64,000 nt of DNA from Escherichia coli. Its GTDB lineage: Bacteria > Pseudomonadota > Gammaproteobacteria > Enterobacterales > Enterobacteriaceae. The stretch lies in assembly GCF_003334255.1 (NCBI RefSeq), contig NZ_QOWU01000012.1; one strand, 5' to 3'. Position numbers and translations under genes: made by a program. The notes under the pieces were generated by a model. That model was given only the letters and a program-made list of their open reading frames with translations. It was not told the DNA's origin and ran no database searches. This document shows positions 2,865 through 49,933 of the stretch, piece after piece. The first letter of the stretch is position 1; each line of letters starts with the position of its first letter.

Positions 2865-3653
2865 TTATTTCAGTTCGAGTTCGTTCATTGCAGCAATGCT
2901 GAAACCGCCGTCAACGTGGACCACTTCACCGGAGATACCGGCAGAGAGATCGGAGCACAGGAATGCCGCAGAGTTACCCACATCTTCAATAGTAACGGTA
3001 CGGCGAATCGGGGTAACGGCTTCGCAATGAGCCAGCATTTTGCGGAAGTCTTTGATACCGGAGGCCGCCAGAGTACGGATCGGACCAGCAGAGATGGCGT
3101 TAACACGCACACCTTCCGGACCCATCGCGTTCGCCATATAGCGCACGTTCGCTTCCAGAGACGCTTTTGCCAGACCCATAACGTTGTAGTTCGGGATAGC
3201 GCGCTCAGCGCCAAGGTAGGAAAGGGTCAGCAGGGCAGAACCCGGATTCAGCATGGAGCGGCAAGCTTTTGCCATTGCAACGAAGCTGTAGGAGCTGATG
3301 TCGTGGGCAATTTTGAAGCCTTCACGGGTAACGGCGTTAACATAGTCACCATCCAGCTGATCGCCAGGTGCAAAACCAATAGAGTGTACGAAACCGTCAA
3401 ATTTCGGCCAAACTTTCCCCAGTTCAGCGAACATGGTGTCGATGCTGGCATCTTCTGCAACATCGCACTGCAGAACGATGTCAGAACCCAATTGAGCGGC
3501 AAATTCTTCTACGCGGCCTTTCAGTTTGTCGTTCTGGTAGGTGAATGCCAGTTCAGCTCCTTCGCGGTGCATCGCCTGAGCGATACCGTAGGCGATGGAT
3601 AGTTTGCTGGCAACACCGGTTACCAGAATGCGCTTACCGGAAAGAAAACCCAT
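2865..3653 (-). CDS. fabI: Enoyl-ACP reductase (NADH) FabI
   Basis: 262 aa, [40 protein letters not shown]...; full-length match to the FabI family. Gene order rnb-yciW-fabI matches E. coli. Confidence 0.96.
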
Positions 3654-3775
3654 AGCTTTAATCCTTATTGTTGATGCTTGTTGTGCCTGAAAATCAGGCG
3701 ATTCGTCGTTTTAGTAAACAGTACGAACAGATAAACGGTTATTATAATCAACCTGGCTGTGAGTAGCTATAGTTG

Positions 3776-3860
3776 CCAGGTCCGACCGGAGCAGGCTGCG
3801 GCAGGGGGGGCGCTTTTCCCCTCACCCTAACCCTCTCCCCAGAGGGGCGAGGGGACCGTA
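3776..3860. repeat. GC-rich imperfect palindromic intergenic repeat, boxC-like (ccctcaccctaaccctctccccagaggggcgagggg)
   Basis: Palindromic G/C tracts cccctc...gagggg. It resembles the boxC family of E. coli intergenic repeats from memory; not verified. Confidence 0.45.
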
Positions 3861-4268
3861 TTGTGCAAATATTGTTACCCCAGCAACAAACAGGCTCATA
3901 CAGCCCCTAACCCTTTCATGGCGATGGCTGGGACGGTTCAGACCTTGCCGAATATTCTCCAGCACCGTCTCCTCATTACAATCAATCTCGTTATTCCAGA
4001 AACGCAGCACGGTCCAGCCCTGCGACTCAAGCCAGCTAGTGCGCCTGGAATCATAGGCAACTGCTAAATCATGCTGCCCACCATCCAGCTCAACGACTAC
4101 ACGCGCCGAGCAGCAAGCAAAATCGAGAATGTAGCTCCCCACTGGATGTTGACGGCGAAATTTGAAATCACTAAAACGTCGGCTGCGAAGATATCGCCAG
4201 AGCTTTCGTTCCTGCAAAGTGAGATTGCGTCTTAAATCACGCGCATTTGATTTAATTTTATCTATCAC
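3822..4268 (-). CDS. ycjD: DUF559 (Vsr-like fold) protein YcjD. GTG start. The C-terminal tail reads into the boxC-like repeat.
   Basis: ORF MIDKIKSNARDLRRNLTLQERKLWRYLRSRRFSDF.... The ORF is 148 aa, against 117 aa annotated in K-12. The last ~30 codons are encoded by repeat sequence. Confidence 0.75.
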   Translation of the reverse strand: MIDKIKSNARDLRRNLTLQERKLWRYLRSRRFSDFKFRRQHPVGSYILDFACCSARVVVELDGGQHDLAVAYDSRRTSWLESQGWTVLRFWNNEIDCNEETVLENIRQGLNRPSHRHERVRGCMSLFVAGVTIFAQYGPLAPLGRGLG

Positions 4269-10309: not shown

Positions 10310-11695
10310 TTACGTTTCACTCACCGGCGTTCTGTCACCATCATACAACGGCACTTTGCGATAGCGGCGGATCAGATACCATAAATATGCGCCGCCTAAC
10401 GAAGCCCATACCAGACCGAGTGTCAGTGACGTTGACTCGAGGTTAACCCACAGCACACCCACCGTCAGCGCGCCAACCAGCGGCATCAGCAAATAGTGGA
10501 AGTGATCCTTCCAGCTTTTATTCATTCCTTTACGCCGCCAGAAATGATTAAACACCGACAGATTCACGAAGGTAAACGCCACCAGAGCACCGAAGTTAAT
10601 TAACGCTGTGGCGGTAACTAAATCGAAGAACAGCGCCGACAACGCGACAATCCCGACCATAATGACGTTGAGTGCCGGAGTCCGCCATTTTGGGTGCACA
10701 TAGCCAAACACCCGCTCCGGAAACACATTGTCACGCCCCATCACATACAGCAGACGCGACACGCTGGCATGTGAAGCCAGGCCAGAGGCTAACGTGTTCA
10801 CAAACGTGGTGCAGAGGAAAATCGACTGGAAGAGCTTGCCGCCGACGTACAGCGCAATTTCAGGCAGTGCGGCATCCGGATCTTTAAAGCGGCTGATATC
10901 GGGAAAGAACAGCTGCATAAAGAACGACGCCGCGATAAAGATAACGCCACCGTAGACCGCCGTCAGGAAGATGGCTTTCGGGATCACGCGTGCGGCGTCC
11001 GGCGTCTCTTCCGAAAGCGTGGTCACCGCATCGAAACCGAGGAAGGAGAAACAGACAATCGTCGCCCCGGTAATAATCGGGATCAGGTGCGCGTTCTCGC
11101 TGATAAACGGCTGAAGTGACCAGACGGTGCCAACGCCTTCTCCTTTATGCAGTCCCTGAACTACCAGGAAGATAAACACCACCATGATGGAGATTTGCAC
11201 CAGTACAAACAGGGTATTGAAGTTAGCGACCAGGTTGACGCTCTTCAGATTCGCGGCGGTTAAAATGGCGACGAAGGTTACCACCCACACCCACGGCGGC
11301 ACTTCCGGGAAGAGGGCGGAGAGATAGATTTTCGCCAACAAGACGTTAATCATCGGCAAAAAGAGATAATCCAGCAGCGATGACCAGCCGACCATAAATC
11401 CGACGTGCGGGTTAATCGACTTTTGCGCGTAGGTATAGGCCGAACCGGCCTCCGGAAACTGGCGAACCAGTTTGCCGTAGCTGATAGCGGTAAACAGCAC
11501 ACCCGCCAGCGCCAGCAAATAGGACGCCGGAACGTGACCGTCGCTAATGCCGGAGACAATACCAAAAGTATCAAATACGGTCATCGGCGTGAGATAGGCC
11601 AGACCCATCATCACCACCTGCCACAATTTCAGTGATTTTCGCAGACGGGTTTTGCCGGGTTGCGCAGCAATATTCAGTGGTGAATTAATAGCCAT
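10310..11695 (-). CDS. puuP: Putrescine:H+ symporter PuuP (APC family)
   Basis: The ORF extends to 11749, but [20 protein letters not shown]... (461 aa) preceded by GGGAGG is the likely start. cat is at 11693-11695. Confidence 0.88.
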
Positions 11696-39228: not shown

Positions 39229-40770
39229 ATGCGTCTGGAAGTCTTTTGTGAAGACCGACTCGGTCTGACCCGCGAATTACTCGATCTACTCGTGCTAAGA
39301 GGCATTGATTTACGCGGTATTGAGATTGATCCCATTGGGCGAATCTACCTCAATTTTGCTGAACTGGAGTTTGAGAGTTTCAGCAGTCTGATGGCCGAAA
39401 TACGCCGTATTGCGGGTGTTACCGATGTGCGTACTGTCCCGTGGATGCCTTCCGAACGTGAGCATCTGGCGTTGAGCGCGTTACTGGAGGCGTTGCCTGA
39501 ACCTGTGCTCTCTGTCGATATGAAAAGCAAAGTGGATATGGCGAACCCGGCGAGCTGTCAGCTTTTTGGGCAAAAATTGGATCGCCTGCGCAACCATACC
39601 GCCGCACAATTGATTAACGGCTTTAATTTTTTACGTTGGCTGGAAAGCGAACCGCAAGATTCGCATAACGAGCATGTCGTTATTAATGGGCAGAATTTCC
39701 TGATGGAGATTACGCCTGTTTATCTTCAGGATGAAAATGATCAACACGTCCTGACCGGTGCGGTGGTGATGTTGCGATCAACGATTCGTATGGGCCGCCA
39801 GTTGCAAAATGTCGCCGCCCAGGACGTCAGCGCCTTCAGTCAAATTGTCGCCGTCAGCCCGAAAATGAAGCATGTTGTCGAACAGGCGCAGAAACTGGCG
39901 ATGCTAAGCGCGCCGCTGCTGATTACGGGTGACACAGGTACAGGTAAAGATCTCTTTGCCTACGCCTGCCATCAGGCAAGCCCCAGAGCGGGCAAACCTT
40001 ACCTGGCGCTGAACTGTGCGTCTATACCGGAAGATGCGGTCGAGAGTGAACTGTTTGGTCATGCTCCGGAAGGGAAGAAAGGATTCTTTGAGCAGGCGAA
40101 CGGTGGTTCGGTGCTGTTGGATGAAATAGGGGAAATGTCACCACGGATGCAGGCGAAATTACTGCGTTTCCTTAATGATGGCACTTTCCGTCGGGTTGGC
40201 GAAGACCATGAGGTGCATGTCGATGTGCGGGTGATTTGCGCTACGCAGAAGAATCTGGTCGAACTGGTGCAAAAAGGCATGTTCCGTGAAGATCTCTATT
40301 ATCGTCTGAACGTGTTGACGCTCAATCTGCCGCCGCTACGTGACTGTCCGCAGGACATCATGCCGTTAACTGAGCTGTTCGTCGCCCGCTTTGCCGACGA
40401 GCAGGGCGTGCCGCGTCCGAAACTGGCCGCTGACCTGAATACTGTACTTACGCGTTATGCGTGGCCGGGAAATGTGCGGCAGTTAAAGAACGCTATCTAT
40501 CGCGCACTGACACAACTGGACGGTTATGAGCTGCGTCCACAGGATATTTTGTTGCCGGATTATGACGCCGCAACGGTAGCCGTGGGCGAAGATGCGATGG
40601 AAGGTTCGCTGGACGAAATCACCAGCCGTTTTGAACGCTCGGTATTAACCCAGCTTTATCGCAATTATCCCAGCACGCGCAAACTGGCAAAACGTCTCGG
40701 CGTTTCACATACCGCGATTGCCAATAAGTTGCGGGAATATGGTCTGAGTCAGAAGAAGAACGAAGAGTAA
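39229..40770 (+). CDS. tyrR: Aromatic amino acid regulon regulator TyrR
   Basis: MRLEVFCEDRLGLTRELLDLLVLRGIDLRGIEIDP... (513 aa) from ATG 39229; AAA+ sigma54-interaction-like domain. Confidence 0.93.
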   Translation: MRLEVFCEDRLGLTRELLDLLVLRGIDLRGIEIDPIGRIYLNFAELEFESFSSLMAEIRRIAGVTDVRTVPWMPSEREHLALSALLEALPEPVLSVDMKSKVDMANPASCQLFGQKLDRLRNHTAAQLINGFNFLRWLESEPQDSHNEHVVINGQNFLMEITPVYLQDENDQHVLTGAVVMLRSTIRMGRQLQNVAAQDVSAFSQIVAVSPKMKHVVEQAQKLAMLSAPLLITGDTGTGKDLFAYACHQASPRAGKPYLALNCASIPEDAVESELFGHAPEGKKGFFEQANGGSVLLDEIGEMSPRMQAKLLRFLNDGTFRRVGEDHEVHVDVRVICATQKNLVELVQKGMFREDLYYRLNVLTLNLPPLRDCPQDIMPLTELFVARFADEQGVPRPKLAADLNTVLTRYAWPGNVRQLKNAIYRALTQLDGYELRPQDILLPDYDAATVAVGEDAMEGSLDEITSRFERSVLTQLYRNYPSTRKLAKRLGVSHTAIANKLREYGLSQKKNEE

Positions 40771-40775
40771 GCGCG

Positions 40776-40810
40776 AATATGCCTGATGGTGCAACACCAT
40801 CAGGCATATT
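40776..40810. terminator. Bidirectional hairpin terminator between the convergent tyrR and tpx (atatgcctgatggtgcaacaccatcaggcatat)
   Basis: 14-bp perfect stem seen in the sequence, flanked by A/T. Confidence 0.7.
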
Positions 40811-40813
40811 AAA

Positions 40814-41320
40814 TTATGCTTTCAGTACAGCCAGAGCTGCTTCGTAATCCGGCTCGGTGGTGATTTCATCCACCAGCTGGCTGAAAATCACATTGTCATT
40901 TTCGTCAATAACCACAACGGCACGCGCTGCCAGACCTTTCAGTGGGCCATCAGCAATTGCCACACCGTAGGCTTGCAGAAATTCAGCGTTACGGAAAGTG
41001 GAGAGGGTGATAACGTTGTTCAGACCTTCTGCGCCGCAGAAACGAGACTGGGCGAACGGCAGATCGGCAGAGATACACAGCACAACGGTGTTGTCGATCT
41101 CGGTTGCCAGTTGGTTAAACTTACGTACTGATGCGGCGCAAACACCGGTATCAATACTCGGGAAAATGTTCAGCACTTTGCGTTTACCCGCAAACTGACC
41201 GAGGGTGACGTCAGACAGATCTTTTGCCACGAGAGTAAAAGTCTGCGCTTTGCTACCCGCCTGCGGGATGGAATTGGCGACTGTAACCGGGTTGCCCTGG
41301 AAATGAACGGTTTGTGACAT
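40814..41320 (-). CDS. tpx: Thiol peroxidase Tpx
   Basis: 168 aa [26 protein letters not shown]... Confidence 0.95.
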
Positions 41321-41428
41321 GATTATCTTTCCTGTTTACATATAGTTAACGTCACACCTAGTTTATGCTAACTGTCAATAACACAGCAAACGCTATTTGC
41401 GCTTAATCCGCAGACCACCGCGACAACA

Positions 41429-42378
<950 letters not shown>

Positions 42379-42404
<26 letters not shown>

Positions 42405-43107
42405 GATGCCAGCGCAGCAAGTTTGCCATCGCAAAGAGATATTTTTCGCTGGCTTCGTCGGAGGAGATGGGCGGAAACTCTGCGGTGATGCAATGCAAGT
42501 TGAGATCTGCACACCAACTGCCGAAAGAGCCAGGCGTTTCATAACCGACGCTGGTTACCAGAGGCAATTCAAACGCCTGGGCCAGCCATTCACCTAATTC
42601 GCTGTGTCTGGGATCTTCAATACAGGCCAGTGGATCGTGGAATGAGACCACCCAGGCAGGTTGAATGCGGTGTATAAGCTGGCACAGCGCCTGGGTTTCA
42701 GGTTCTGAGCCAGGTTTGTCACCTGTCAGTAATACGACATCACGTTCTTCAGCGGCGCTGTTCCAGCGATAAACCGTTTCACCTTCCTTCCAGTTCGCCG
42801 CCGGAAAGTTTCTGTTTAAATCCACACCATTAGCATTGGCCCGTAACCCCAGCTGGCAGCCGTCAGGATTCGCACACAGCACCACATGATGGCGGCGCAA
42901 AGAAGGTGTCAACGTCCGCAGAGCACAGGAGAGCGTGACGACCGAAGAGTTTTCATCACCGTGAGTGCCAGCCAGAATCAAACCACTTTCGCGGCTGGCT
43001 GCAGGGGCAGGAAACCAGATTAACGGCGCGCCCAATAATGAACGTCCGTAATGTTCTGTTCCGGGCGGAAATGCGCCGCGTTCGGCGCGTGGGCGGGTTA
43101 CGGTCAT
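42379..43107 (-). CDS. mpaA: Murein tripeptide amidase MpaA (M14-like zinc carboxypeptidase)
   Basis: MTVTRPRAERGAFPPGTEHYG... from ATG 43107. The 3' ends of ycjG and mpaA overlap by 26 bp. Confidence 0.85.
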
Positions 43108-43183
43108 GATCGTCTCTGGTTCAGGAAGTATTACAGGCAGTGTTGTGCAAATTTTGCGGATTATCAAATCCTTTTCTTCAACG

Positions 43184-43372
43184 CTATGTCATCGATCTTG
43201 TATCACTTTTTTTGCCGGAAGTTGTTTGCATTTTATTAGTTGGATAGGGTTTGTGGATTTTTGCTGGCTGACGGGCAAATAAAGTTTGTTTAATGGTTTG
43301 CTTATCTGCCAGTTGATTAATCACATGGCGGGCTATCTGACCGCCAGCACCAAGAATCAGTACCTTTTTCAT
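43184..43372 (-). pseudogene. ymjC: ymjC, N-terminal fragment of an NAD(P)-binding (NmrA/SDR-like) protein
   Basis: 62 aa MKKVLILGAGGQIARHVINQL... with a Rossmann GxGGxIA motif, then an out-of-frame tail. Too short for the fold; known deletion remnant in K-12. Confidence 0.7.
43199..43231 (+). repeat. Copy 1 of a ~31-bp near-identical element (tgtatcactttttttgccGGAAGTTGTTTGCATTT)
   Basis: Direct visual match to 45648-45680. It lies ~100 bp upstream of mpaA, inside the ymjC remnant. Confidence 0.7.
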
Positions 43373-43378
43373 GAAAAT

Positions 43379-43443
43379 TATCCCAGATTATTGGCAGCAA
43401 TATGCCAGGCCATATCACTATTGCGGATTTGAATATGTTTCAT
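43379..43443 (-). CDS. ymjD: ymjD, 21-aa expressed deletion fragment (MKHIQIRNSDMAWHIAANNLG)
   Basis: The small ORF starts on the minus strand in the TAATG overlap with the ycjY stop. Confidence 0.55.
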
Positions 43444-44363
43444 TACAGAGTTTCCTCAAAGAACGGAGCTAATACTGAAATTGCTTCAGCCACATAGGCT
43501 TTGCCGTCATAAAGATCCATATGGTTTGCGCCTTCAACAATGTGATAGCGTTTATCCTGGCTTGATGCTCGATCGTACAGGTCGTCACTCATCCATTTGC
43601 TCCCTGCCTGGCTGCCCGCCACAATCTGCGTCGGCTGAGTCAGGTACACTTCCGCCATATGGTAAGCATCATAGGTAATAATCTGGTTAAGGCTGCGCAA
43701 AGTAGCGTAACCCGGTGCTGTTGGATACTGCGCGCGAGGGGTGTGGTAATACTCCCAGGCCTGACGCAGTTCTTCGTTCGGCGCATCGGACTCCTTCATT
43801 GGTGCCAGTGGCATAATGGCGTATTCTCCGCTGCTAATATCGCTGGTTCTGGCGTTTGAACCCGCTTCAACGTATGGCAGGGCATCAATAGATTTCACAT
43901 TGTTTTCCCAACCATTACGGAACATCGAACCAATATTGACTGCACTAACGGTACCGATGGCCTTGATGCGGCGATCCTGAATTGCAGCATTGGCTGTATA
44001 TCCTGCACCGGCACAAATTCCCATCGCACCAATTCGGGTATTGTCGACATAAGAAAGCGTTGTCAGGTAATCAATCACGGCACTGACGTCTTCAGTACGA
44101 ATGTATGGGTTTTCTAACTGACGCGGCTCGCCGCCACTTTCACCCTGATAAGATGCGTCATAAGCAATAGTGACAAATCCCTTTTCCGCCAGTTTTTCGG
44201 CATAGGTCCCGGCCGTTTGTTCTTTAACGCCCCCACCTGGGTGAGATACCACAATTGCCGGATATTGACGGGTTTCATCAAATTTTGGAGGAAAATAGAT
44301 CACTGCAGACAAAGAGATGGTTGGATTATTGCTGTTAGTGAAGCTGACTTTATTATTCATCAT
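43443..44363 (-). CDS. ycjY: YcjY, alpha/beta hydrolase (S9/dienelactone hydrolase-like)
   Basis: MMNNKVSFTNSNNPTISL... (306 aa) with GAGGAA 5 nt upstream of ATG 44363; GXSXG MGICAGAG. Confidence 0.82.
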   Translation of the reverse strand: MMNNKVSFTNSNNPTISLSAVIYFPPKFDETRQYPAIVVSHPGGGVKEQTAGTYAEKLAEKGFVTIAYDASYQGESGGEPRQLENPYIRTEDVSAVIDYLTTLSYVDNTRIGAMGICAGAGYTANAAIQDRRIKAIGTVSAVNIGSMFRNGWENNVKSIDALPYVEAGSNARTSDISSGEYAIMPLAPMKESDAPNEELRQAWEYYHTPRAQYPTAPGYATLRSLNQIITYDAYHMAEVYLTQPTQIVAGSQAGSKWMSDDLYDRASSQDKRYHIVEGANHMDLYDGKAYVAEAISVLAPFFEETL

Positions 44364-44500
44364 TCCGTTCCTCATGGAGTTGTTGGTTCGTTTTAACGGT
44401 TGGTGATATCACTATAGATATTGATCATTAAGTTGATTAGACCCAAAATCATGATTAGACCTATCATTTAAATGATTAATAGATTGTATGGAGATACTGA

Positions 44501-45400
44501 ATGAAGCGTGAAGAGATCGCTGATCTGATGGCGTTTGTCGTCGTTGCAGAGGAGCGTAGCTTCACTCGAGCAGCAGCCCGCCTGAGCATGGCGCAGTCAG
44601 CTTTAAGCCAGATAGTGCGCCGTATAGAAGAACGATTGGGATTGCGGCTTCTGACCCGAACCACGCGCAGTGTTGTACCCACTGAAGCGGGCGAGCATCT
44701 TTTGTCTGTTCTTGGCCCTATGTTGCATGACATAGATTCAGCCCTGGCATCCCTGAGCGATCTGCAGAACCGCCCATCCGGGACAATACGTATTACTACT
44801 GTAGAACATGCAGCAAAAACGATATTGTTACCAGCAATGCGCACATTCCTGAAATCGCATCCTGAAATTGATATTCAGCTCACCATTGATTATGGTTTGA
44901 CCGATGTCGTTTCTGAACGTTTTGATGCAGGCGTCCGTCTGGGTGGGGAGATGGATAAAGATATGATCGCCATTCGAATCGGGCCAGATATACCAATGGC
45001 TATTGTTGGCTCACCGGATTATTTTTCTCGCCGAAGTGTTCCAACGTCAGTGTCACAATTAATAGATCATCAGGCAATTAATTTGTATCTTCCCACATCG
45101 GGTACAGCAAATCGCTGGAGATTAATACGCGGTGGACGTGAAGTTCGTGTTCGCATGGAAGGTCAGCTTTTACTGAATACGATAGACCTGATCATTGATG
45201 CTGCAATTGATGGGCATGGATTGGCGTATCTACCTTATGATCAGGTTGAGCGGGCTATTAAAGAAAAAAAACTGATACGTGTTTTGGATAAATTCACACC
45301 AGATTTACCCGGTTATCACCTGTACTATCCACACCGTCGACATGCTGGCTCGGCATTCTCATTATTTATAGATAGGCTGAAGTATAAAGGTGCTGTTTAG
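44501..45400 (+). CDS. ycjZ: LysR-family transcriptional regulator YcjZ
   Basis: 299 aa; N-terminal HTH. Confidence 0.88.
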   Translation: MKREEIADLMAFVVVAEERSFTRAAARLSMAQSALSQIVRRIEERLGLRLLTRTTRSVVPTEAGEHLLSVLGPMLHDIDSALASLSDLQNRPSGTIRITTVEHAAKTILLPAMRTFLKSHPEIDIQLTIDYGLTDVVSERFDAGVRLGGEMDKDMIAIRIGPDIPMAIVGSPDYFSRRSVPTSVSQLIDHQAINLYLPTSGTANRWRLIRGGREVRVRMEGQLLLNTIDLIIDAAIDGHGLAYLPYDQVERAIKEKKLIRVLDKFTPDLPGYHLYYPHRRHAGSAFSLFIDRLKYKGAV

Positions 45401-45647
45401 CACTACTTGCTGATACATTAATTTAATTCTTCTCTTAACGTATTCTCAGTTCCTTTCAACGTTTTGGTCATTTTTTATTCTTCGTACAATGGCGACAGAT
45501 GCTGATTATGATACCGAAAACGGGTTTGAACGTGCGAAGCCCGAACGTAGTGTTCGGAGTTCTATGTGCTTTACCGCATTTTGGAGACTATTATTTACAC
45601 TAAATCTGATTTGATATATTGATACTTAAAACATTTGATGCTTCCTT

Positions 45648-45680
45648 TGTCACTTTTTTGATGGAAGTTGTTTGCATTTC
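45648..45680 (+). repeat. Copy 2 of the same element (tgtcacttttttgatGGAAGTTGTTTGCATTT), overlapping the mppA -35
   Basis: 17-bp identical core and ~29/33 identical overall. Confidence 0.7.
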
Positions 45681-45707
45681 TTTAAGGCGAAACAAATAAT
45701 TACGCAT
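45674..45707 (+). promoter_or_regulatory. Putative sigma70 promoter of mppA: TTGCAT-N17-AATAAT
   Basis: Hexamers read from the sequence ~35-60 bp upstream of the mppA ATG. Confidence 0.45.
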
Positions 45708-45736
45708 CAATTTTAATGTCGGTTAGAGGGAAACTT

Positions 45737-47350
45737 ATGAAGCACTCTGTTTCAGTCACGTGTTGTGCGCTGTTGGTCAGCAGCATTTCTCTTTCGTATG
45801 CTGCAGAAGTTCCGAGCGGCACAGTACTGGCAGAGAAGCAGGAGCTGGTGCGCCACATTAAAGATGAGCCTGCGTCGCTGGATCCCGCTAAAGCCGTGGG
45901 CCTGCCAGAGATTCAGGTCATTCGCGATCTGTTTGAAGGTCTGGTGAATCAGAACGAAAAAGGGGAGATTGTCCCCGGCGTTGCGACTCAGTGGAAAAGT
46001 AATGACAACCGTATCTGGACTTTTACCCTGCGCGATAACGCAAAATGGGCGGATGGCACACCGGTAACGGCGCAAGATTTTGTCTACAGCTGGCAACGTC
46101 TGGTGGACCCAAAAACATTGTCGCCATTTGCATGGTTTGCCGCGCTGGCGGGAATCAACAACGCACAGGCGATTATTGATGGTAAAGCTACGCCTGACCA
46201 GCTTGGCGTCACCGCAGTTGATGCCCATACTTTGAAAATTCAGCTTGATAAACCGTTGCCGTGGTTTGTGAATTTAACCGCTAACTTTGCCTTCTTCCCG
46301 GTGCAAAAAGCCAACGTAGAAAGCGGTAAAGAGTGGACGAAACCCGGAAATCTGATCGGCAATGGCGCTTATGTTCTTAAAGAGCGCGTAGTCAATGAAA
46401 AACTGGTCGTGGTACCGAATACCCATTATTGGGATAACGCCAAAACGGTACTGCAAAAAGTGACCTTCCTGCCAATTAATCAGGAATCCGCAGCCACTAA
46501 GCGTTACCTCGCGGGGGATATTGATATCACCGAATCCTTCCCGAAAAATATGTATCAGAAGCTGTTGAAGGATATTCCGGGGCAGGTTTATACGCCGCCG
46601 CAGCTCGGGACCTATTATTATGCGTTTAACACGCAAAAAGGGCCGACGGCAGATCAGCGCGTTCGTCTGGCATTAAGTATGACGATAGATCGCCGCCTGA
46701 TGACCGAAAAAGTATTAGGGACGGGCGAAAAGCCAGCGTGGCATTTTACACCAGATGTTACCGCGGGATTTACGCCGGAACCTTCGCCGTTTGAACAAAT
46801 GAGTCAGGAAGAACTGAATGCGCAGGCAAAAACTTTGTTGAGCGCAGCTGGTTATGGTCCGCAAAAACCGCTGAAGCTGACGCTTTTGTATAACACTTCA
46901 GAAAACCATCAAAAAATTGCGATTGCTGTAGCATCGATGTGGAAAAAGAACCTTGGCGTAGATGTTAAATTGCAAAATCAGGAATGGAAAACCTATATCG
47001 ATAGCCGTAACACCGGCAATTTTGATGTTATCCGCGCCTCGTGGGTGGGGGATTATAATGAACCCTCCACTTTCCTGACATTATTAACGTCAACGCATTC
47101 AGGAAATATTTCACGCTTTAACAATCCGGCATATGACAAAGTTCTGGCCCAGGCATCGACGGAAAATACCGTTAAAGCGCGTAATGCCGATTACAACGCG
47201 GCAGAAAAAATCCTCATGGAGCAAGCACCGATTGCACCAATTTATCAATATACCAATGGACGATTAATCAAGCCGTGGCTGAAAGGTTATCCCATTAATA
47301 ATCCTGAAGATGTGGCGTACAGTCGGACTATGTATATTGTGAAGCATTGA
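45737..47350 (+). CDS. mppA: Periplasmic murein tripeptide-binding protein MppA (SBP family 5)
   Basis: MKHSVSVTCCALLVSSISLSYAAEVPSG... (537 aa) from ATG 45737. Confidence 0.9.
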   Translation: MKHSVSVTCCALLVSSISLSYAAEVPSGTVLAEKQELVRHIKDEPASLDPAKAVGLPEIQVIRDLFEGLVNQNEKGEIVPGVATQWKSNDNRIWTFTLRDNAKWADGTPVTAQDFVYSWQRLVDPKTLSPFAWFAALAGINNAQAIIDGKATPDQLGVTAVDAHTLKIQLDKPLPWFVNLTANFAFFPVQKANVESGKEWTKPGNLIGNGAYVLKERVVNEKLVVVPNTHYWDNAKTVLQKVTFLPINQESAATKRYLAGDIDITESFPKNMYQKLLKDIPGQVYTPPQLGTYYYAFNTQKGPTADQRVRLALSMTIDRRLMTEKVLGTGEKPAWHFTPDVTAGFTPEPSPFEQMSQEELNAQAKTLLSAAGYGPQKPLKLTLLYNTSENHQKIAIAVASMWKKNLGVDVKLQNQEWKTYIDSRNTGNFDVIRASWVGDYNEPSTFLTLLTSTHSGNISRFNNPAYDKVLAQASTENTVKARNADYNAAEKILMEQAPIAPIYQYTNGRLIKPWLKGYPINNPEDVAYSRTMYIVKH

Positions 47351-47374
47351 TGTGATGGGAACTGGCGTTACCCT

Positions 47375-47400
47375 TGTGCATAACGCCAGTGATGTCTGAT
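47375..47400. terminator. Hairpin (ggcgttacccttgtgcataacgcc) between the convergent mppA and ynaI
   Basis: 8-bp stem seen in the sequence. Confidence 0.5.
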
Positions 47401-48432
47401 TTAGCGACCCTGTTCCGGCGGTGTAATGTTATCCATATACAGCGTCTGGCTGGGGAAGGCAAAGTCCGCGCCGTGTGACTGTACAATATCGATAATCTTC
47501 AAATAAACGTCTTGCTGTGCAGCAAGCCATTCAGCCCATACCGTGGTTTTGGTAAAGCAATAAACCATAATATTCAATGAAGAGTCAGCAAACTGGTTGA
47601 AATAAACCAGTAAGGTTTGTCGCTGGTCGATGGCCGGGTGATTTTTCAGCATCTCACGTACAGCTTCGACAATAACGCCCACTTTTGCCGCATCCTCATA
47701 ACGTAAACCAATGGTCGTGGTAATGCGGCGGTTGGTCATTCGTCCTGGGTTTTCTACGCTGATCGACGAAAACAGCGAGTTCGGTACGTACAATGGACGA
47801 TTATCAAAGGTCGTAATTTTGGTAATTCGCCAGCCAATTTCCGCTACTGTACCTTCGATATTTCTGTCCGGTGAACGGATCCAGTCGCCAATACTGAAAG
47901 GACGGTCGAAATAGAGCATAATCCCGGAAAAGAAGTTACTCAGAATATCTTTACCGGCCATACCGACAGCCAGACCACCAATACCACCAAAGGTCAGCAA
48001 GCCAGAAAGGCTCATGCCGAAATGTTCGCCATAAAGCAGAACAAGCACCACAATAATGGTGATTTTGATGATACGCGACATAATCCGCGCACTGGTGATA
48101 TCGCGACCTTTTTTAATCTGCTGTTTTTCAAACTGATTAATCAGCAGAAATAGCTTAATCGTCAGAATAACCGCAATCAGGGACGTACAGATAAAATCGA
48201 TAACGCCTGGGGTGATAAATTTGAGTTTATAGTTTTCTATAACATAATTAATAATGCTACCAACAGCACTGATAATTATGGTGTAGATTAAAAATTGCAC
48301 CGCATGGAATAAAAATCCTTTTCTTTTACGATTTCCACGGCGAAACCAAAAGCTCATCAGAATCAATGCTGCGCAGCTACCGAAAATAATGACCAGATTA
48401 AGCGCATTATTTGTAAACAGTTCAGCGATCAT
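47401..48432 (-). CDS. ynaI: MscS-family mechanosensitive channel YnaI
   Basis: 343 aa. Confidence 0.9.
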
Positions 48433-48675
48433 TGTTTTATCAGGCTCCTCCAGATAATTGTCGTCATGCCGGAAACCCCTGGCGGGGCTATTTTACCGCG
48501 ACAATTCATTCAGATCATCAATAGTCAGGGAAGGAAGTAGCAACATTAGCTAACTAATCAATGCGTTGATTGTAAATCCAGCTAAGAGGTGAGGTTTTCA
48601 GAGCAGACAACGGTGAAATGTCATGGTATTGTTACGTTTAGGTAACAAGAAATTTGTCTGCACAAGGATTACATC

Positions 48676-48933
48676 ATGATTATGGCGAAACTGAAGTCAG
48701 CGAAAGGGAAGAAATTTCTCTTTGGTTTGTTGGCGGTTTTCATTATTGCGGCGTCGGTTGTGACTCGCGCGACCATCGGCGGCGTTATAGAACAGTACAA
48801 TATTCCGCTGTCTGAGTGGACGACATCAATGTATGTGATTCAGTCATCGATGATTTTTGTTTATAGCCTGGTCTTTACTGTGTTGCTGGCAATCCCGTTG
48901 GGAATTTATTTCCTTGGCGGCGAAGAGCAGTAA
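48676..48933 (+). CDS. ynaJ: DUF2534 small membrane protein YnaJ
   Basis: 85 aa, two TM segments. Confidence 0.8.
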   Translation: MIMAKLKSAKGKKFLFGLLAVFIIAASVVTRATIGGVIEQYNIPLSEWTTSMYVIQSSMIFVYSLVFTVLLAIPLGIYFLGGEEQ

Positions 48934-48934
48934 G

Positions 48935-48970
48935 TAAAAAATAGGCCCGATAACTCGGGCCTTGTCAGTT
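48935..48970. terminator. Bidirectional terminator (aaaaaat-ggcccgataactcgggcc-ttgtcagtt) between ynaJ and uspE
   Basis: Stem ggcccg/cgggcc with A-run and T-rich flanks. Confidence 0.65.
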
Positions 48971-48982
48971 ATTGAAGAGTCG

Positions 48983-49933
48983 TTAATCGTCTTCTTCGTC
49001 ATCCAGTTCAACGGGTGTCTGATACTGGTCAGGTTTAATGACCAGCAGGTCGCAGCGAAGATGATCAATCACCTGTTCCGCCGTGTTGCCGAGGAATGCT
49101 GCTGAAATACCGGTGCGTCCGACCGTGCCCAGAACCACAATTCCCGCCTGTAAATGCTCCGCCAAATCAGGAATCACCTCTTCAGGCAGACCTTTTTCTA
49201 CGTGCGTCATGTTTTCATTAATGCCGAATTTCTGCCGCAGAGCTTTCATTGCCAGCAAATGTTGCCCACGAATGGCATCGTTATAAACGCTCGGGTCAAA
49301 TTCCGGCAGTTCAATCGCGATATTAATTGGCGTTACCGGATAAGCGCCAACCAGATGAACTTCGGTATGGTTGACTTGTTCTGCCAGTTCGATCGTCTCT
49401 TTGACCAGTTTTTCATTGAGCGCATTATGATACGGCTCTTCACTGGCGAGATTCACCGCCACCAGCGCCTTGCCTCCTTCCGGCCACGGCTGGTCTTTCA
49501 CCATCCACACCGGGCTTGGGCATTTGCGTAACAGATGCCAGTCCGTTGGCGTAAAAATCACCGCTTCCAGACGGTCATGTTGGTGCGCCATTTTTAGCAC
49601 CAAATCGTGTCCGCCGCTGATCACTTCCTGAATGATGGCTTCGAAAGGACGGTTATGCCAGACCACTTTAATTTCAATGGGAACGCCAGCATTGAGATAA
49701 TATTTTGCCTGCTCGTGGATCCAGGCTGTACGCTGGCTGATGACGCCCTGACGCATAGCGGTACGTTCGTCCGGGGAGAGCAGGGTGGTCATTTCGTATG
49801 AGAAGTCATAGATCGGCAAAAAGGCTTTAATTTTGCCACCAATCCGTTGATGTAAATAAACAGCTCGCCGCAATGCTGGTTGGTCGTCCTGGTTAGGATC
49901 GATAACAACGAGCATGTTCTGATACATAGCCAT
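48983..49933 (-). CDS. uspE: Tandem-domain universal stress protein UspE
   Basis: [24 protein letters not shown]... (316 aa) from ATG 49933 after AAGGAG. Confidence 0.9.

Follow-up and report, generated by a model that had tools for sequence, protein, structure and literature searches.

A direct repeat at the edges of the ymjC-ycjY-pgrR cassette, the probable scar of its insertion between mpaA and mppA in Escherichia coli

The mpaA-mppA locus and its repeat pair

In Escherichia coli the genes mpaA and mppA, which code for proteins that cleave and bind murein tripeptide, are separated by a small group of genes (ymjC, ycjY and pgrR), and at each edge of this group there is one copy of a short direct repeat, whose origin is the subject of this work. 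The DNA analyzed is a stretch of 64 kb (the window) that belongs to E. coli, its positions 42900–43500 being 100% identical to strain ATCC 8739 and 99.5% identical to K-12. According to the RefSeq annotation of matching genomes, the gene order is ycjG (+), mpaA (−), a ymjC remnant (−), ycjY (−), pgrR, also known as ycjZ (+), mppA (+) and ynaI (−). A first-pass annotation of this DNA had taken the two copies for a shared operator or promoter module or, alternatively, for the ends of a rearrangement. Our comparisons with related genomes indicate that the pair is very probably an insertion scar.

The repeat was found as it had been described, i.e., with a 17-bp identical core present twice in the same orientation about 2.4 kb apart. 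The core, GGAAGTTGTTTGCATTT, is exact at 43217–43233 and 45663–45679 on the same strand, and the two copies are spaced 2446–2447 bp. When up to two mismatches were allowed there were only two matches in the 64 kb, against 0.06 expected, and two or more matches appeared in 0 of 100 shuffles. A repeat search of the window carried the similarity beyond the core, giving a stretch of 31 nt (87%) and, next to it, another of 17 nt (82%). In strains with a run of six T this amounts to an ungapped direct repeat of 37 nt that is 86% identical (TCTTGTATCACTTTTTTGCCGGAAGTTGTTTGCATTT vs. TCCTTTGTCACTTTTTTGATGGAAGTTGTTTGCATTT). In the window copy 1 has seven T instead of six and is hence 38 nt long, and copy 2 has 37 nt. 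The two copies differ at 5 of 37 positions, including a GCC in copy 1 that is GAT in copy 2. Beyond the 37 nt no similarity was found on either side: the Smith-Waterman scores of the left-left and right-right flanks were below the shuffle means, and a longer duplication was rejected on this ground. Two details of the first-pass annotation have to be corrected. Copy 1, which it had put at ~100 bp, is located 89–126 bp upstream of the mpaA ATG (43107). It had also placed this copy inside the ymjC remnant, which does not hold, as in strains with an intact SDR gene copy 1 is intergenic between mpaA and that gene; in the deletion allele only the 62-amino acid remnant open reading frame reads into it.

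Further copies were searched for by blastn with a 45-nt probe, in a search that detects matches of about 20 nt or longer. The probe was located at 10,627 places in 5,419 E. coli genomes, with a median of two and a maximum of four places per genome. Many unrelated copies would have spoken for a generic repeat, and no further copies were found in E. coli genomes. It follows that the element is not an interspersed repeat and, as far as matches of about 20 nt or longer show, does not belong to a motif with other members. It had no match to an Rfam family.

The empty site and the inserted cassette

The comparative sample was the MpaA locus of one genome from each of 80 species, in which MppA, PgrR, YcjY and the SDR were placed by tblastn. 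In 68 Enterobacteriaceae species other than E. coli, mpaA is the divergent neighbor of mppA, at a distance of 177–203 bp, and each spacer contains one copy of the element. Among them are representatives of Citrobacter, Enterobacter, Leclercia, Lelliottia, Kluyvera, Pluralibacter and Trabulsiella, as well as Escherichia ruysiae, E. whittamii and Escherichia sp. MOD1-EC7003, the Escherichia spacer being 182 bp long. The same empty site, with mpaA and mppA 182 bp apart and one element copy, was present in 174 (3.2%) of the 5426 complete genomes used as the E. coli population sample for allele counts. If the 126 bp of the window that go from the mpaA start to the end of copy 1 (43108–43233) are joined to the 57 bp that separate copy 2 from the mppA start (45680–45736), the resulting 183 bp can be aligned base by base to the spacer (182 bp) found in Escherichia sp. 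MOD1-EC7003 and in empty-site E. coli. The two flanks rebuild the ancestral spacer and, therefore, 43234–45642 can be taken as an insertion and the elements as its flanking target duplication. The pattern is that of insertion-flanking duplications, i.e., one copy in the empty site, additive flanks, direct orientation and absent DNA that is immediately bracketed. The single copy in the empty site, the exact additivity, the conservation of the promoter (see below), the foreign cassette and the presence/absence polymorphism are demonstrated, and we consider it very likely that both copies descend from a single ancestral element and that the pair is the scar left by the insertion of the ymjC-ycjY-pgrR cassette between mpaA and mppA.

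The insert has 2409 bp in the window and ~3074 bp in intact-SDR strains, and its GC content is 36–51% vs. 51–56% in the flanking genes. The cassette genes are those of the SDR (ymjC), ycjY and pgrR. A syntenic module was found in the Klebsiella aerogenes conjugative plasmid pC9_001, where an SDR (83.5% at the amino acid level), a second alpha/beta hydrolase, YcjY (91.8%) and a divergent LysR (88%) are encoded, with a DNA similarity to the E. coli cassette of 76–80%. The 94-bp and 241-bp ends of the insert have no homology in the pC9_001 module, and no exact match to the 17-nt core (no mismatches allowed) was found in a 14-kb stretch of the plasmid or in the other module loci. Relatives of YcjY with 82–89% amino acid identity were found in Pluralibacter, Rhizobium, Agrobacterium, Sphingobium and Burkholderia. 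Next to the ycjY homologue there is a divergent LysR gene in each of the three contexts examined, and the remaining neighbors are unrelated. The conservation of YcjY is unusually high across distant phyla-level groups and, together with the LysR pairing, points to a probably frequent horizontal transfer of this regulator-enzyme module. The insert is a foreign, self-contained, horizontally acquired module. As possible donors, the closest YcjY loci outside E. coli were discarded (the contexts differ and the element is absent), and so were P0002, which is a poorly assembled E. coli-like locus, and the matches in plasmid collections, mostly mislabelled chromosomes among which only K. aerogenes pC9_001 was informative. 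Neither annotation nor Pfam revealed a transposase, integrase or other recombinase at the insert, whose gene content is SDR, hydrolase and LysR only; there were no terminal inverted repeats at its ends and no tRNA in 40000–49000. The coordinates of the features are collected in Table 1.

Table 1. Features of the mpaA-mppA region in the window.
Feature	Coordinates	Strand	Description	Basis
Insert	43234..45642	.	Inserted foreign DNA, missing from the empty site	Comparison with empty sites, GC content
Copy 1	43196..43233	+	Probable copy of a duplicated target at the left insertion junction; ancestral sequence kept, including GCC; orphan −35 TTGCAT at 43226-43231	
Copy 2	45643..45679	+	Probable copy of a duplicated target at the right insertion junction; would give the mppA promoter its T-tract and −35	
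mpaA-proximal ancestral spacer	43108..43195	−	Contains the conserved GCAGTGTTGTGCAAA (43137-43151) and ATCAAAT	68-species alignment
mpaA	42379..43107	−	Murein tripeptide amidase	RefSeq annotation of matching genomes
mppA	45737..47350	+	Murein tripeptide binding protein	RefSeq annotation of matching genomes
ycjY	43443..44363	−	Alpha/beta hydrolase; belongs to the inserted cassette	Annotation, Pfam
pgrR (ycjZ)	44501..45400	+	LysR-type regulator, divergent from ycjY; belongs to the inserted cassette	Annotation, Pfam
Putative mppA promoter	45672..45700	+	Sigma70-type; −35 TTGCAT 45672-45677, 17-nt spacer, −10 AATAAT 45695-45700	Conservation, consensus
Candidate mpaA promoter	43167-43162 and 43144-43139	−	TTGATA, 17 nt, AACACT; overlaps both mpaA-proximal conserved blocks	Inference
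ymjC remnant	43184..43372	−	62 amino acids ("NAD(P)H-binding"), N-terminal third of a 212-amino acid NAD(P)-binding SDR	Annotation, Pfam
ymjD region	~43390..43443	−	First ~18 codons of a second alpha/beta-hydrolase gene	Comparison with pC9_001; matches the annotated ymjD position

Promoter content, decay and loss

Alignment of the spacer in the 68 species gave six conserved blocks: the mpaA-proximal GCAGTGTTGTGCAAA and ATCAAAT, ATCA with the T run, AAG...TTTGCATTTC, GAAACAAATAATTAC and the Shine-Dalgarno sequence GAGGG. Upstream of mppA the arrangement TTGC(A/T)(A/T), exactly 17 nt and AATAAT is kept in 68 of 68 species, and a consensus promoter scan of the window selects the same site (45671–45700) at copy 2. 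The suggestion of the first-pass annotation that copy 2 carries the mppA −35 (TTGCAT) thus receives comparative support, from the hexamers as well as from their spacing. Judging from conservation and consensus, the element would be the upstream half of a sigma70 promoter of mppA, with its T-tract and −35. Copy 1 is oriented away from mpaA. There is no acceptable + strand −10 downstream of its −35 (GTTTGT in the window, TATTAG in intact-SDR strains) and the scan reports no + strand site there; copy 1 would be an orphan, non-functional −35 half upstream of mpaA. The insertion point lies 2 bp downstream of the −35 hexamer, within the promoter spacer. Therefore, without a duplication the −35 and the −10 would be split, and with it copy 2 and the original −10 make a complete promoter. 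On the other side of the spacer, the GCAGTGTTGTGCAAA block and the ATCAAAT block (43160–43168) are almost invariant in the 68 species, more than a weak promoter needs, and these two blocks may contain a regulator site for mpaA.

The ymjC gene carries a 664-bp deletion that begins one base past copy 1 (GCATTTT/ATTAG in the window) and ends within the SDR gene. Its junction is present in 2293 of the 5426 complete genomes (42%). In intact-SDR strains (e.g., S12, locus L001) both copies are found at a distance of 3111 bp, copy 1 being identical and located in the mpaA-SDR intergenic region. Both copies are present in intact-ymjC strains and, therefore, the ymjC deletion did not create the repeat; it is a separate, later, independent decay step. 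Thus, of the idea that the pair marks the ends of a rearrangement, what stands is that the copies are at the ends of the whole ymjC-ycjY-pgrR insertion, and what has to be given up is that they are the ends of the ymjC/ymjD deletion, copy 1 being unchanged where ymjC is intact. The left breakpoint of the deletion (43234/43235) directly adjoins the 3′ end of copy 1, a single base into the insert, with a microhomology of ~1 nt. That an insertion junction and a deletion end fall within 1 nt could be a coincidence or reflect a fragile or recombinogenic position. The deletion junction also creates a promoter-like site directed toward mpaA (TCCACA, 16 nt, TAAAAT, 43257–43230, − strand), the −10 of which combines the last bases of copy 1 with the joined ymjC sequence. 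None was reported in positions 3650–4050 of the intact-SDR locus L001, and the site could alter the expression of mpaA in the 42% of genomes with the deletion. A second case of decay affects ymjD. The second hydrolase gene (310 amino acids) is intact between ycjY and the SDR gene on pC9_001 (L095:5120-6052), and also beside ycjY in Pluralibacter, and ymjD appears to be the remnant of this gene, cleanly deleted in E. coli. The decay of the cassette is stepwise: the E. coli loci examined no longer have the second hydrolase, and 42% of the complete genomes have also lost most of the SDR.

Apart from the empty (3.2%) and ymjC-deletion (42%) alleles, the remainder of the population sample consists of the intact cassette or other forms. 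The empty sites are not all alike. In that of strain 2013C-4282 the GCC of the ancestral form is accompanied by flanks that share only ~96% identity with the window, similarly to the non-coli Escherichia locus L004, and its sequence suggests that it is ancestral or imported. In ST648 the GCC is found with E. coli-type flanks and its origin is ambiguous. CP131, GF4-3, MS 21-1 and PT62 have the left part of copy 1 (CTTGTATCAC) joined to the GAT of copy 2. The flanks of CP131 were compared with the cassette-bearing window and were identical at 1521 of 1521 positions on the right and 99.4% identical on the left. A recent crossover between the copies within CACTTTTTT would leave such a chimera with window-like flanks, and excision through the repeats is well supported in the CP131 lineage. 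A different situation was observed in Escherichia sp. E1V33 (L007:5373-5490). Here the DNA flank of mpaA and ycjG is ~86% identical to the window, i.e., non-coli-like, and the proteins of the cassette are 98–99% identical to those of E. coli, with the ymjC deletion shared as well. In the right part of its copy 2, GCC and GTTATTT are found, two variants that characterize non-coli Escherichia. They suggest recombination inside the element between lineages, with the cassette spreading among Escherichia by homologous recombination.

Other rearrangements were found in the same spacer. Salmonella enterica subsp. arizonae and diarizonae (L022:4848-8000, L026:4562-8000) have an independent insertion of ~3.1–3.4 kb with cdtA, cdtB and cdtC between mpaA and mppA, in which Pfam identified two CDtoxinA domains and one Exo_endo_phos nuclease. 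In L026 the homology to the ancestral spacer breaks within the element (ATCAACTTTCTGCCGGA/TACAG) and the conserved −35/−10 region of mppA is replaced. In Scandinavium manionii and Citrobacter sp. OP27 (L071:7400-8000, L080:7400-8000) the homology of the spacer stops just past the ATCAAATAGTTTCC block and mppA is not adjacent, which is a third kind of rearrangement. The mpaA-mppA spacer may be a recurrent landing site.

Origin of the duplication and likeness to known systems

In the history that we propose, mpaA and mppA would at the beginning have been adjacent and divergent, with a control region of ~182 bp and one element, the upstream half of the mppA promoter. A horizontal cassette of ~3.07 kb, made up of pgrR, its divergent target operon ycjY, the second hydrolase gene now lost and the SDR gene ymjC, would have entered 2 bp past the −35, and the insertion event would have duplicated 30–37 bp of the target. 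At the right junction copy 2 together with the original AATAAT −10 would have restored the mppA promoter. Upstream of mpaA the 126 bp would have been left intact, with copy 1 at their far end as a −35 that has no −10. An event that regenerates the promoter would be favored by selection for the expression of mppA. Later on, the repeats would have acted as short homologies for the loss of the cassette, and the 664-bp deletion in ymjC would have followed as a later independent decay. The duplication itself could be the product of the fill-in of a widely staggered break, of the single-crossover integration of a circle carrying the segment, or of replicative template switching, in which the chromosome would have been re-entered ~37 bp upstream of the exit point.

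There are several points that weigh against this reconstruction. A duplication of 30–37 bp is far longer than those of the transposase type, and there is no transposase, integrase, terminal inverted repeat or tRNA to go with it. The 5 differences in 37 positions exceed what is expected for a recent duplication, although part of these differences (GCC vs. GAT) may be due to population polymorphism or inter-lineage recombination and not to divergence in place. An old GCC/GAT polymorphism combined with recombination between strains could likewise mimic excision in the GAT-type empty sites generally. Finally, the assignment of the mppA promoter is drawn from conservation and consensus, with no mapped start retrieved for mppA or mpaA. 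The papers on SELEX (systematic evolution of ligands by exponential enrichment) with the RpoD holoenzyme that name the locus list no mppA promoter peak, and mppA is not mentioned in PMC3946193. A literature search on the mppA or mpaA promoter, ymjC/ymjD or this repeat found nothing relevant.

The shared operator or promoter module that the first-pass annotation had proposed for coordinating mpaA and mppA is not supported, in view of the single ancestral element of the 68 species, of a copy 1 that faces away from mpaA without a −10 and of the lack of further copies in E. coli genomes among matches of about 20 nt or longer. In addition, the sites found by SELEX for PgrR include the ycjY/ycjZ spacer and neither copy of the element (PMC5934670). 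The idea could be maintained if the ancestral element were the operator of a still unnamed regulator for both genes and the duplication had been kept since each gene needs its own copy, which we regard as unlikely. It is true that the insertion left mpaA its whole 126-bp ancestral upstream region and mppA 94 bp, with 37 bp overlapping, and that parts of the element (ATCA, the T run, AAG and TTTGCATTTC) are kept across genera. However, the conserved positions are accounted for by a −35 at a fixed 17 nt from the −10, plus the T-tract, there is no evident dyad symmetry in the element, and copy 1 lies ~55–95 bp upstream of the candidate mpaA promoter in the opposite orientation. There are two copies per genome, both of them missing from the PgrR SELEX targets, and our literature search gave nothing on such a site. 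CRP- or FNR-like half sites seen by eye in the spacer were dropped, as they are not conserved across genera. In a bolder version, the 37-bp element would be a bidirectional site for a regulator of murein-peptide recycling, and the duplication would have been selected so that both genes kept it after being split. This seems to us improbable as well. If it were so, coordinated control would persist, layered with PgrR-dependent read-through from ycjY into mpaA. The PgrR regulon has been listed as ycjG, ycjXF-tyrR and ycjY-ymjDC-mpaA (PMC5934670), and the reported co-transcription of mpaA and ycjY would cross copy 1 on the opposite strand.

An integration by site-specific recombination appears still harder to sustain. 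Here the 37-nt repeat would be the core of an attB in the mpaA-mppA spacer and of an attP on a circle, now seen as attL and attR, with the recombinase acting in trans or lost. Islands mediated by integrases typically have direct repeats of such a length, the insert has low GC content, the module is found on a conjugative plasmid, natural excision was apparently precise, and the same spacer independently took the cdtABC islet in S. enterica subsp. arizonae and diarizonae. Against this, there is no integrase, excisionase or tRNA, and three genes with metabolic or regulatory roles take up the 3 kb of the insert. No homology to the insert ends (94 bp and 241 bp) is found in the plasmid module, the plasmid stretch examined does not contain the exact 17-nt core, and the Salmonella junctions are at another position and without such a repeat, all of which makes us consider this origin very unlikely. 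Chance similarity, a generic interspersed repeat (REP/BIME/ERIC-like) or the end points of the ymjC/ymjD deletion can be practically dismissed. The deletion does have its left breakpoint one base from the end of copy 1, but copy 1 is present and identical in intact-ymjC strains, and the other two readings are refuted by the shuffles, none of which had two matches, and by the ~2 places per genome, which leave no interspersed family, to which the absence of an Rfam match can be added.

If the pair is an insertion scar, a conspicuous repeat is explained without a new regulator and a false regulon lead is removed. The scar is of a known general kind and, as far as we have found, not described at this locus. 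The group pgrR-ycjY-ymjD-ymjC is then a decaying horizontal module wedged in the ancestral control region of mpaA and mppA, which is of modest interest for how the pgrR module became wired to murein-peptide genes. The co-transcription of mpaA with ycjY and the label of PgrR as "regulator of peptidoglycan recycling" may be due to the place of the insertion rather than to an old functional link. The empty, deletion and intact alleles provide a natural series in which to see how two genes of one pathway are rewired when DNA enters their divergent promoter region, and a target duplication of 30–37 bp without a recombinase is a small mechanistic puzzle.

Among known systems, repeats of the REP/BIME, ERIC/IRU and Box C types have tens to hundreds of copies per genome and are usually palindromic, unlike the present element, with its two places per genome (median; four at most) and no Rfam match. 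A regulon motif of a transcription factor needs independent copies at several genes, together with binding, and here the search, sensitive to matches of about 20 nt or longer, gave only the two copies, which are related by duplication and missing from the PgrR SELEX list. Divergent regions with a shared operator, e.g., the pgrR-ycjY spacer, resemble the ancestral mpaA-mppA spacer, which is compact and divergent between two genes of the same pathway. However, the element has neither a known regulator nor a recognized dyad operator, the conservation fits recognition elements of RNA polymerase, and the binding reported for PgrR is at the ycjY/pgrR spacer, which belongs to the insert. The attL/attR cores of integrase islands and prophages are alike in repeat length, direct orientation and possible precise excision, and differ in that the mpaA-mppA insert has no recombinase gene or tRNA/tmRNA target and that no exact 17-nt core was found in the 14-kb stretch examined of its plasmid homologue. 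The closest likeness is to the target-site duplications of genomic islets, in which one copy is present when the site is empty and two direct copies bracket foreign DNA that is absent from relatives, and which share with the present case the foreign base composition, the presence/absence polymorphism and the loss through the repeats. Transposase duplications have 2–14 bp vs. the 30–37 bp found here, where the insert is without transposase, integrase or inverted-repeat ends. Unlike in the usual islet duplications, the segment duplicated between mpaA and mppA would be a functional promoter half, and the need to express mppA probably acted as a selective filter on which insertions survived.

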